DNA of 64,000 bases from a virus, in IMG/VR virus record IMGVR_UViG_3300030104_002421, positions 64,001 through 128,000 of that record. One strand, 5' to 3'. Below are positions 43,728 to 54,500 of the stretch, one piece after another (position 1 is the first letter of the stretch; each line of letters begins with the position of its first letter). Below the pieces are notes generated by a model, which was given only the letters and a program-made list of their open reading frames with translations, searched no databases and was not told the DNA's origin. The position numbers and the translations under genes were made by a program.

Positions 43728-43756
43728 TTGACATTTATATCAAAATATGATAGGAT
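43728..43756 (+). promoter_or_regulatory. Sigma70-type promoter (leaderless start at 43764)
   Basis: TTGACA-N17-TAGGAT, ATG 7 nt downstream. Confidence 0.7.
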
Positions 43757-43763
43757 ACAGACA

Positions 43764-44126
43764 ATGGCATTAATTTATACACATAACAGTTCACCAAGAC
43801 GCTTCAAGCGTGTTGTAAAGAACAAGAAATATTATGAAGCGCTTGCTGAGAGAGACAAGTTATTGAGACGATTAGGTATTGACCCCAACAGAAAGATACC
43901 AAAATACAGACCAGAGAAAATGAAAATACATACTGCCCCTGTGGCTCAATTGGTAGAGCAGACGATTTGTAATCGTCAGGTTGCAAGTTCAAGTCCTGCC
44001 GGGGGCACCAAACCTGTTTCTAATTGGCGATTAGAAGAAAGCAAAAAGTTTACTGTAGCACCTGCTTATAATAAAGGTGCATATCAAGTAATAACAAAAG
44101 AAAACATAAAGGATATAGGCAAATGA
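43764..44126 (+). CDS. Conserved phage protein (PAYNKG motif) containing an in-frame tRNA
   Basis: Open frame through the tRNA; C-terminal TVAPAYNKGAYQVI..DIGK; stop coupled to the next gene. Confidence 0.7.
   Translation: MALIYTHNSSPRRFKRVVKNKKYYEALAERDKLLRRLGIDPNRKIPKYRPEKMKIHTAPVAQLVEQTICNRQVASSSPAGGTKPVSNWRLEESKKFTVAPAYNKGAYQVITKENIKDIGK
43935..44010 (+). tRNA. tRNA-Thr(UGU) with encoded CCA
   Basis: Acceptor GCCCCTG/CGGGGGC, D stem GCTC/GAGC, anticodon stem GACGA/TCGTC with loop TT-TGT-AA, T loop TTCAAGT, ACCA end; 76 nt; one T-stem mismatch. Confidence 0.93.
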
Positions 44127-52665: not shown

Positions 52666-52694
52666 TTGACTTTTTCACTATATTGTGATATAAT
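52666..52694 (+). promoter_or_regulatory. Sigma70-type promoter
   Basis: TTGACT-N17-TATAAT with TG extension. Confidence 0.75.
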
Positions 52695-52724: not shown

Positions 52725-53414
52725 ATGTTTAATCACATTACCCCAACAGGTGATATGCCACCTTTAAAAGCAAAAAATGTATCAGGTAAAAGATTTTATG
52801 AACACCTGGAAACCAAAGAAGTATATCCTTCTATCACAAGCGTTTTATCTATTAGACAAAAACAAGGTCTTATAGAGTGGCGTAAAAAAGTTGGTGATGA
52901 AGTTGCCAACCATGTTATGATAACTGCTGCCAATAGAGGTACAGCAGTACACAATATGGTAGAGGATTATCTAAACAATCTTAACATAGATGAAAACGAG
53001 AAGTATAAAAAACAATTTCTACCTAGAATGATGTTTCAGGTTCTAAAACCTGAATTACAAAATATAAATAATATTAGGCTACAAGAAGCCCAAATGTACT
53101 CAACAGATTACACCGTGGCAGGTCGTTGCGATTGTATTGGTGAGTATGAAGGCGTACTATCAATTATAGATTTTAAAACATCTAAAGGAGATAAAAAGGA
53201 AGACTGGATAGAAAACTATTTTATTCAAGGTAGTGCTTATGCAGAAATGTACGAAGAACACTTTGGCGAACCTGTAGAACAGGTAGTAATATTAGTTGTA
53301 ACGGAAGAAGGAACAACACAGGTATTTAAGAAAAGTAAAAAAGACTATCTACCTCAATTAAAAGACGCTATAACAGACTTTTACAAATGGGTAGAAAAAA
53401 ATGAAAAAAATTAA
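52725..53414 (+). CDS. PD-(D/E)xK exonuclease
   Basis: YPSITSVL, RGT.VH, AGRCD, IIDFKTS, Q..AY. Confidence 0.88.
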   Translation: MFNHITPTGDMPPLKAKNVSGKRFYEHLETKEVYPSITSVLSIRQKQGLIEWRKKVGDEVANHVMITAANRGTAVHNMVEDYLNNLNIDENEKYKKQFLPRMMFQVLKPELQNINNIRLQEAQMYSTDYTVAGRCDCIGEYEGVLSIIDFKTSKGDKKEDWIENYFIQGSAYAEMYEEHFGEPVEQVVILVVTEEGTTQVFKKSKKDYLPQLKDAITDFYKWVEKNEKN

Positions 53415-53799
53415 AGAACTATCATTGTTAGTATTTTTACTAACATTTATTATAATTGTTTCAGTATGGACAACATCAGCAGCTGCTGAAGGACCAAAGT
53501 ATGATTTATCAAAAATGAAGCAGAGACAAGTACCTGCTTATTGTGGAGATACTGGGTTTATGTTTGAAACATCATTAGAATTATTTAATGAATTACCAAT
53601 TGCAGGTGCTGAAGTTAGAACGGCAGGAATGCCAGATGCTCCAATCATAGGTATCATTACTCTAACTTATAACGAAGATAGAGGTTCAGGTACTGTAATG
53701 ATGACTATACCAGCAATAGGCGAGACATGTGTTCTAGCATATGGTATGAATTGGCAATTTTATAACGAAATTCATGTTGAAGGTAATGAGAGTAAATAG
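53401..53799 (+). CDS. Secreted hypothetical protein
   Basis: Signal peptide; CG...TCVLA.G Cys pair. Confidence 0.55.
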   Translation: MKKIKELSLLVFLLTFIIIVSVWTTSAAAEGPKYDLSKMKQRQVPAYCGDTGFMFETSLELFNELPIAGAEVRTAGMPDAPIIGIITLTYNEDRGSGTVMMTIPAIGETCVLAYGMNWQFYNEIHVEGNESK

Positions 53800-53996
53800 T
53801 ATGGACGGCGGGGCAGTACCGCCCACCTCCACCACAGACACGGGGGTGAAATAGGTTCGACAGCTATTAGAAATCGTGCTGGAGTGGATAGTCCAAAGAC
53901 TTAAAACTAAAATAAAAGCAAACTTTAATGAGTATGCATTAGCAGCGTAGGCTGTTAGGGGTTTGCCTTGTACCTTGCAACAGAAACAAGGCACCA
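53790..53996 (+). ncRNA. ssrA: Circularly permuted two-piece tmRNA, alphaproteobacterial type
   Basis: Acceptor piece GGACGGCGG-GGCAGTA-CCGCC-CACCTCCACCA ends 53834; 7-nt spacer; coding piece starts GGGGGTGAAATAGGTTCGAC at 53842; G3-U70 pair; tag ANFNEYALAA* at 53918-53950; outer ends approximate. Confidence 0.9.
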
Positions 53997-54012
53997 AACA
54001 AAGGAGATTGTT

Positions 54013-54147
54013 ATGATTGAAGTATTAGAAATTTTATTACCAGTTGGTATCATAGTTGCATGTGCTTATGGCATTGGGTATCTATCTGGAAGTGAGGCAA
54101 CAAGAGAAATTTATAACCCAACATTGAGAAAGAATGATTTAAAATGA
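54013..54147 (+). CDS. 44-aa membrane peptide (not in ORF track)
   Basis: RBS AAGGAG; one TM segment; ATGA coupling. Confidence 0.55.
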   Translation: MIEVLEILLPVGIIVACAYGIGYLSGSEATREIYNPTLRKNDLK

Positions 54148-54500
54148 AACAAAGTGATGAGTTTTATCGTCTATTAGATGAAATGAAAAGAGTCCATAAT
54201 CTTAAAAGGCATGATTATGCAAGTAAAGAGGACATCTTTCAAAATTTTAGAACAAGTGAACTAGGTGGTATTCCTGCCTGGAAAAGTGTAGCAATTAGAA
54301 TTGGTGATAAGTTTAGTCGTTTAATGTCCTTTGTAAAACAAGGTGAATTGCATGTAGAAGATGAAACAATTGGTGATACTCTTATTGACATGGCTAACTA
54401 TGCTTTAATTTGTCATATATTATTTTATGAACAAAAACTTAAAAACCTAAGCGCTGACGCTGATGAACTGACGGAGCGTTTACTGGAGAAACATAGATGA
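54144..54500 (+). CDS. Nucleotide-modification-associated domain 1 (DUF1599-like) protein
   Basis: K.HDY, NF, RIGDK.SRL, E...DTLIDMANYA. Confidence 0.75.
   Translation: MKQSDEFYRLLDEMKRVHNLKRHDYASKEDIFQNFRTSELGGIPAWKSVAIRIGDKFSRLMSFVKQGELHVEDETIGDTLIDMANYALICHILFYEQKLKNLSADADELTERLLEKHR

Follow-up and report, generated by a model that had tools for sequence, protein, structure and literature searches.

The window analysed here is a 64,000-nt stretch covering bases 64001-128000 of an IMG/VR virus record that is 146,188 bp long and 99% complete by CheckV. On its + strand, at 53779-53995, lies a transfer-messenger RNA (tmRNA) gene, ssrA, of about 210-217 nt when counted from 53779 or 53786 to 53995. 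The gene order is permuted, with the T-arm, the 3′ strand of the acceptor stem and the CCA (53807-53834) placed upstream of the 5′ strand and the tag frame (53842-53950). ARAGORN called a permuted tmRNA (marked tmRNA*) with the tag ANFNEYALAA*, and the locus was matched by two Rfam covariance models, tmRNA_permuted RF04321 at 98.4 bits (E 6.5e-18; gathering cut-off 47) and alpha_tmRNA RF01849 at 74.7 bits (E 1.8e-18; gathering cut-off 50). Because both scores exceed their gathering cut-offs, the match to a tmRNA is far from chance. The acceptor stem, GGGGGTG with CACCTCC-ACCA, is tRNA-Ala-like, with G3.U70, the discriminator A73 and the CCA all present. This is the sole tmRNA match in the 146,188-bp record, and its features, together with those upstream, are as follows.

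52666-52694, + strand: candidate early sigma-70-type promoter, TTGACT-17-TATAAT with a TG extension (consensus scan, 11/12 matches)
53401-53799, + strand: upstream ORF of 132 aa (ORF132), a signal-peptide protein homologous to HTVC008M gp194 (BLASTP E 4e-12)
53779-53834, + strand: acceptor piece; the RF04321 alignment begins at 53779 and the 5′ boundary is uncertain
53786-53789, + strand: P2b strand of the acceptor piece (co-fold of the two pieces)
53795-53800, + strand: P2a strand of the acceptor piece (co-fold of the two pieces)
53807-53823, + strand: T-arm GGCGG-GGCAGTA-CCGCC, loop GGCAGTA (sequence; 100% paired in the alignment)
53824-53830, + strand: acceptor 3′ strand CACCTCC (sequence; 100% paired in the alignment)
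53831-53834, + strand: discriminator A and CCA (ACCA; sequence)
53835-53841, + strand: intervening 7-nt segment CAGACAC, predicted to be removed (sequence; Caulobacter precedent for processing)
53842-53995, + strand: coding piece, with the 5′ half GGGGGTGAAATAGGTTCGAC from 53842 (the RF01849 alignment ends at 53995)
53842-53848, + strand: acceptor 5′ strand GGGGGTG (44-sequence alignment, pair counts and co-fold)
within 53842-53995, + strand: D-loop-like AAATAGGTTCGAC (44-sequence alignment)
53863-53868 and 53874-53877, + strand: P2 strands of the coding piece (alignment, pair counts and co-fold)
53890-53901, + strand: hairpin AGTC/GACT (alignment and pair counts)
53918-53950, + strand: tag frame with resume codon GCA, peptide ANFNEYALAA and stop TAG (ARAGORN)
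53940-53957, + strand: stop-codon hairpin TAGCAGC/GCTGTTA, whose loop GTAG holds the stop (MFE fold; 78% of cells paired)
53958-53992, + strand: 3′ pseudoknot domain with the invariant AACAGAA loop (agrees with the RF01849 consensus at its 3′ end)
53958-53962 and 53972-53976, + strand: 3′ pseudoknot stem S1, GGGGT/ACCTT (74% paired)
53965-53970 and 53987-53992, + strand: 3′ pseudoknot stem S2, GCCTTG/CAAGGC (92% paired, with compensatory changes)

A preliminary description of this DNA had proposed a phage-encoded, alphaproteobacterial-type two-piece tmRNA that works with host SmpB. The T-arm, CACCTCC-ACCA, the CAGACAC spacer, the 5′ half, G3.U70 and the tag frame all lie where it had placed them, and the upstream stop codon that it saw overlapping the acceptor piece is TAG 53797-53799, which falls within a P2 strand. 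It had named ARAGORN and the covariance models as checks; the former called the same tag independently and the latter gave matches above gathering, so that the absence of a covariance-model hit, an outcome it had listed as refuting, did not occur. The covariance models, covariation, relatives and distribution of smpB all agree with this proposal, and the sequence supports an alphaproteobacterial-type, circularly permuted two-piece tmRNA encoded by a phage.

Structural conservation of the tmRNA

The helices of the window were projected onto an alignment of 44 distinct sequences, of which 14 were Pelagibacteraceae genes, 21 came from the ANFNEYALAA clade and 9 from other phages, with shuffles (n=500) and slid partners as controls. 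Standard pairs occupied 87% of cells, compared to 73% in the shuffles (0/500 as high) and 38-50% with slid partners, and four helices contained compensatory changes. The T-arm and the acceptor stem are both 100% paired, with compensatory changes in 3/5 and 2/7 pairs, respectively, and the G.U at 3:70 is invariant in all 44 sequences, phage and host alike. Pairing reaches 93% in P2a, where 4/6 pairs are compensatory, and some compensatory changes also occur in the 3′ pseudoknot stems S1 (74% paired) and S2 (92% paired). In the PK1 region the 4-bp hairpin alone has support (67% paired) and a second stem could not be fixed; a UGGA/UCCA stem suggested by the RF04321 alignment was rejected, as it is broken in two close relatives (v007 and v043), leaving the AGTC/GACT hairpin as the only one that holds.

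Co-folding the two predicted mature pieces recovered P1, the T-arm, P2a (53795-53800/53863-53868) and P2b (53786-53789/53874-53877). The acceptor stem does not form in the single-sequence MFE fold of the precursor, but does form between the co-folded mature pieces. This complete, covarying architecture indicates that the gene is not a decaying host fragment, and the tmRNA gene is kept by selection in many phages.

Genome context and host partners

The genome is that of a lytic T4-like pelagimyophage of the HTVC008M type. The DNA surrounding the tmRNA is ~75% identical to the Pelagibacter myophage HTVC008M, and neighbouring genes encode an endolysin, an exonuclease, a gp33-type late-transcription regulator and a helicase loader. 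A tyrosine integrase was not found in the 99% complete genome. An SmpB domain, reported missing from the window by the preliminary description, was found neither there nor in the rest of the 146-kb genome, so that the RNA would need the SmpB of its host. Three complete Pelagibacter genomes each encode SmpB (3/3), and the protein is probably supplied in trans. A phage-encoded ClpP that could act as a partner for the tag was sought in the genome and none was found; there is likewise no phage protease or adaptor candidate in the genome.

The candidate promoter at 52666-52694 lies upstream of the exonuclease gene, ORF132 and ssrA, in that order. Neither a comparable promoter nor a + strand terminator was found between this element and the tmRNA; because nothing closer was found, this consensus match is the likeliest promoter of the precursor, and its use is presumed. 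A T4-type late promoter (TATAAATA) was also considered as the driver and proved uninformative, its nearest + strand copy (53063) lying inside the exonuclease gene and the motif not being enriched in the window.

Two further features of the genome were observed. Between the tmRNA and the gp195 homologue is an ORF of 44 codons (54013-54147), which has a strong Shine-Dalgarno sequence, AAGGAG, and a product that is hydrophobic in its N-terminal half. This ORF has no counterpart in HTVC008M, where gp195 starts directly after the tmRNA. The sole tRNA of the genome, a tRNA-Thr (UGU) at 43935-44010, lies fully within a same-strand ORF (43728-44126), an arrangement that parallels the overlap of ORF and tmRNA.

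Overlap of the upstream ORF with the acceptor piece

The protein encoded by ORF132 starts with a signal peptide or TM segment, carries the conserved motifs CG[DE][TS], MMT and TC.L.YG..W, and had no PHROG match. Its family shows a coding-type substitution pattern, with 46% of single-difference codons synonymous among 32 unique homologues. The last codons and stop of ORF132 overlap the acceptor piece, whose 5′ end falls within this protein-coding gene, and the stop stands 3-6 nt before the T-arm junction. With the stop inside the RNA, dual coding extends over at least 14 nt of the acceptor piece. The same overlap occurs in 73-78/155 viral loci and in 3-5/77 cellular loci, which suggests that a conserved upstream ORF ending inside the acceptor piece is specific to the phage clade and rare in cellular loci. 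In HTVC008M, the annotated start of gp194 (96 aa; L002 4032-4322) lies downstream of a signal-peptide region present in the genes of near-identical contigs (e.g. L013), indicating that the start was probably annotated too far downstream or that the gene is truncated there.

Comparison with other phage tmRNAs

The HTVC008M ssrA (NC_020484.1, about 145,100-145,415) is syntenic with the gene described here, following the exonuclease and gp194-like genes and preceding the gp195-like and gp33-like late-transcription genes. The 255-nt gap between gp194 and gp195 carries this permuted tmRNA, which is unannotated in RefSeq and is found by both ARAGORN and Rfam. As in the window, the gene is permuted, the tag is ANFNEYALAA, with codons that differ at 3 synonymous positions, and the stop codon of the upstream ORF falls within the acceptor piece. 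The T-arm stem and P2 sequences of the two phages show compensatory differences. The spacer between the CCA and G1 is 49 nt in HTVC008M, with self-complementary arms (CCACTTC ... GAAGTGG), compared to 7 nt here. This 7-nt spacer is the shortest of the sampled viral copies, the others being 16-49 nt where a motif search could measure them; spacers are 6-12 nt in Pelagibacteraceae and 4-13 nt in many other marine Alphaproteobacteria.

A tmRNA of this kind is already published for a phage group that includes HTVC008M, and the locus is the copy of an uncultured relative. Buchholz et al. (2022, PMC9004378) described a two-piece ssrA in the OM43 (Methylophilales) myophage Melnitz, noted that such genes are common in the phage group, and listed HTVC008M as 'Permuted' in Table S1. 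The same study found permuted tmRNAs in 17/47 related contigs and, in a survey of 18,146 phage genomes, counted 53 unique two-piece tmRNAs, of which 50 came from marine or aquatic samples; it placed the Melnitz ssrA in the alphaproteobacterial/SAR11 lineage and proposed similar functional ideas. Like the gene in the window, the Melnitz and pelagimyophage genes are alphaproteobacterial two-piece forms near a late-transcription coactivator gene, for which early expression and dependence on host factors have been proposed. Going by the published description, they differ in the 3′ domain, where a glutamine riboswitch was reported for Melnitz (PMC9004378); neither glnA nor any other riboswitch family gave an Rfam match at E<=1 over 53650-54150, and a riboswitch was rejected for this gene. 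Phage ssrA genes without smpB have been known since the Bxz1-type mycobacteriophages (PMC4131195), unrelated phages in which the tmRNA has the standard one-piece form, and a 2025 tmRNA database (PMC11915505) includes 79 phage sequences that are unique. Given this published phage-group phenomenon, and the normality of a 6-12-nt spacer in Pelagibacteraceae ssrA, the preliminary description overstated how unusual the gene is.

Comparison with SAR11 chromosomal ssrA

The phage gene shares with the SAR11 chromosomal genes (L096, L106, L094 and L130) the permuted order, short spacer, GGCRGUA T-loop, G3.U70 and AACAGAA loop, as well as a short tag of 9-10 residues ending in ALAA or AIAA. On RF01849 the hosts score 210-247 bits over 297-303 nt, whereas the phage copy scores 74.7 bits over 265 nt, a third of the host score, which indicates that regions outside the tRNA-like domain are divergent. 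The RF01849 alignment of the phage 5′ region has low posterior probability and mismatched pairs. The SAR11 genes have a promoter-like 5′ region and a 5′ hairpin, and the phage copy has neither, this space being occupied by the conserved ORF. The promoter and 5′ hairpin are features of the cellular genes and not of tmRNA function. In the four SAR11 genes, RF01849 model positions 1-33 align to a promoter-like CTTTAAA...TATATT rather than to mature RNA, and model spans thus overstate the length of the RNA.

Differences in size are moderate, and are larger in the RF01849 spans than under a uniform trim. The coding piece is 154 nt in the phage and 168-173 nt in the hosts, and under a uniform trim the phage gene is 227 nt, the SAR11 genes are 231-235 nt and another phage clade is 216 nt. 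The phage P2 is 8 nt shorter, and its stop-codon hairpin 17-18 nt shorter, than in the SAR11 host. The length of about 200 nt given in the preliminary description was therefore roughly correct (about 210-217 nt), but largely mirrors a SAR11 gene that is itself already small; its word compact is fair, although the size difference is modest.

The phage tag and its viral relatives

The RNA matched only HTVC008M when compared by blastn to the phage collection, and pattern scans of IMG/VR were therefore needed to find relatives, of which the nearest viral contig is 89% identical. A back-translated pattern of the tag found ANFNEYALAA in 51 IMG/VR contigs and gave 0 matches in ~185,000 cellular species representatives, ruling out a host among these genomes as the source of the exact tag. 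Seven synonymous nucleotide versions of the ANFNEYALAA frame occur among the relatives. A pattern over the tRNA-like domain that is independent of the tag found 42 viral contigs, in which every ARAGORN-called locus has an intact tag (ANESYALAA, ANESYAMAA, ANDNFAPVDYALAA, ADQYEYAMAA, ANDNSYALAA or ANFNEYALAA). Finally, a pattern of the 3′ pseudoknot domain found at least 120 viral contigs. An intact tag ending in [LM]AA is present in each of the 139 complete viral loci with the 3′ domain, some of them first retrieved by the tag pattern itself, and their 21 ARAGORN-called tag variants differ mostly at positions 3-6. The tag frame is therefore conserved in related phages, with intact tags and synonymous changes.

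ARAGORN made no call for 21/139 complete viral loci (~15%), in which the full architecture (acceptor, T-arm, tag and 3′ domain) is visible by eye, and phage tmRNA counts from ARAGORN alone are consequently underestimates. The uncalled loci include L004, L027, L031, L038, L044, L046 and L051, and one example has the D-loop-like variant GGGGCCAAAATTAGGATTGAC. Separately, four viral loci (L232, L274, L278 and L289) and those with the tag DNHIDYRMAA have an apparent GAC (Asp) resume codon in place of GCN and an RMAA end, so that the tags (DNESYRMAA and DNHIDYRMAA) are unusual in both the resume codon and the penultimate region.

In an unrooted maximum-likelihood tree, a branch with SH-aLRT 99 separates all 39 distinct viral sequences from 70 cellular alphaproteobacterial sequences. 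The viral and cellular sets were gathered by sequence patterns from among the matches listed, as a sample and not a census; one viral clade is accordingly a statement about the sampled sequences. The split persists after flank trimming and after adding cellular genes with the phage-type 3′ motif. This motif gave 4 matches in cells. Three of them, called by ARAGORN, are long ssrA genes of the ordinary Hyphomicrobiales-like type and fall outside the phage group; the fourth was uncalled.

Discussion

Our analysis indicates that the locus is very probably a functional permuted ssrA that is transcribed early in a polycistronic RNA, processed and charged by host enzymes, delivered by SmpB and used to tag proteins with ANFNEYALAA. 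The identity and architecture of the gene, which has every sequence determinant of a two-piece tmRNA, its structural and coding conservation and the lack of a phage SmpB are shown by the sequences, whereas the transcription unit, processing, charging, tagging and benefit are inferred. Transcription would start at the candidate promoter 52666-52694 and run early in infection through the exonuclease gene, ORF132, ssrA and the downstream genes. Host RNase P would then cut at 53841/53842, before G53842, and host tRNA-processing enzymes would trim the 7-nt spacer at the 3′ end back to the encoded CCA (53834), leaving the acceptor and coding pieces held together via the acceptor stem and helix P2. 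The two-piece tmRNA that Keiler, Shapiro and Williams studied in Caulobacter is reportedly cellular and larger. It offers an experimental precedent, in which a permuted gene yields two base-paired RNAs that act in trans-translation (Keiler, Shapiro & Williams 2000, as cited in PMC9004378), and the spacer processing proposed here is drawn by analogy with it.

The mature RNA would be alanylated by host AlaRS, which would recognize G3.U70 and A73, and host SmpB would bring the charged RNA to stalled ribosomes. Translation would resume at GCA, adding (A)ANFNEYALAA to the stalled chains. A YALAA end is a ClpXP-type degron, and the tagged chains would be degraded by host ClpXP-type proteases. The decay of mRNA during infection would generate non-stop messages, and the likely benefit to the phage is that ribosome rescue and the clearance of truncated proteins would be sustained as host transcription and the supply of host tmRNA fall.

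A bolder account of the same gene, which we regard as doubtful, is that it belongs to a long-lived, virus-only tmRNA lineage instead of being a recent copy of a host ssrA, and that it was remodelled within its operon. Its own promoter and 5′ hairpin would have been lost, the tag would be one found in no cell, and the acceptor piece would have become dual-coded with the end of a conserved secreted-protein gene, coupling the two. Excision of the acceptor piece from the transcript would deprive the mRNA of this secreted-protein gene of its stop codon. If this account is true, production of the rescue RNA would be mechanistically coupled to the expression or tagging of the neighbouring protein.

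It is unlikely that the RNA binds host SmpB mainly to manipulate host trans-translation, whether by out-competing the host tmRNA, by altering adaptor or protease recognition through the phage tag, or by steering host proteins to degradation for amino-acid recycling. Consistent with manipulation, ANFNEYALAA occurs in 51 viral contigs and in 0 of ~185,000 cellular species representatives, the SAR11 host tags are different 9-mers (ANESYAIAA, ANESYALAA, ANNKLALAA and others), and within the sample the viral tmRNAs fall in a single clade that excludes the cellular ones. In addition, a TLD-only phage tmRNA has been reported to inhibit host tmRNA (PMC4131195), and selective tagging was raised as possible by Buchholz et al. 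(PMC9004378). However, the phage tag retains the C-terminal YALAA and the N-terminal AN, and sister copies in the same viral clade carry ANESYALAA, identical to some SAR11 tags, which together indicate that the tag differences are confined to the least constrained middle positions. The failure to find a phage protease or adaptor candidate in the genome also speaks against manipulation. Redirection of tagging is thus a minority alternative, and sustained rescue is the likely role.

Another possibility, which we consider very improbable, is that the main role of the tRNA-like fold is to provide an RNase P processing and stability signal in the polycistronic early transcript, between ORF132 and the downstream genes, with the tag incidental. 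The packing of the gene between ORFs, with a promoter and terminator of its own not found, the stop codon of the upstream ORF inside the RNA, and the nesting of a tRNA in an ORF of the same genome would all fit such a role. For a mere processing signal, however, there would be no need of a conserved resume codon, a tag peptide, a degron, a hairpin at the stop codon or a pseudoknot in the 3′ domain, and each of these is maintained. Least credible of all, and close to refuted, is a non-functional leftover of host ssrA from imprecise excision or an attP-like site, unused as a tmRNA: ssrA is a common integration site with fragments in prophages, according to work cited in PMC9004378, and the phage copy scores far below host copies on the alpha model, but nothing is missing from either half, the tag frame or the 3′ domain, four helices have compensatory changes with G3.U70 invariant, tags are intact in 139/139 complete viral loci with the 3′ domain, no integrase was found in this 99% complete lytic T4-like genome, and HTVC008M, at ~75% genome identity, has the gene in the same position.

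The main value of the locus lies in confirmation and annotation, the HTVC008M RefSeq record being without the gene. Our additions are modest and leave the accepted picture unchanged: a tag that is phage-only in the collections searched, a separate viral clade in the sample and the ORF overlap, each of which is testable. The family is large, with at least 120 IMG/VR contigs. Phage tmRNAs of this kind may allow viruses of the ocean's most abundant bacteria to sustain or redirect the ribosome rescue of their hosts, and are relevant to how infection reshapes translation in streamlined cells.
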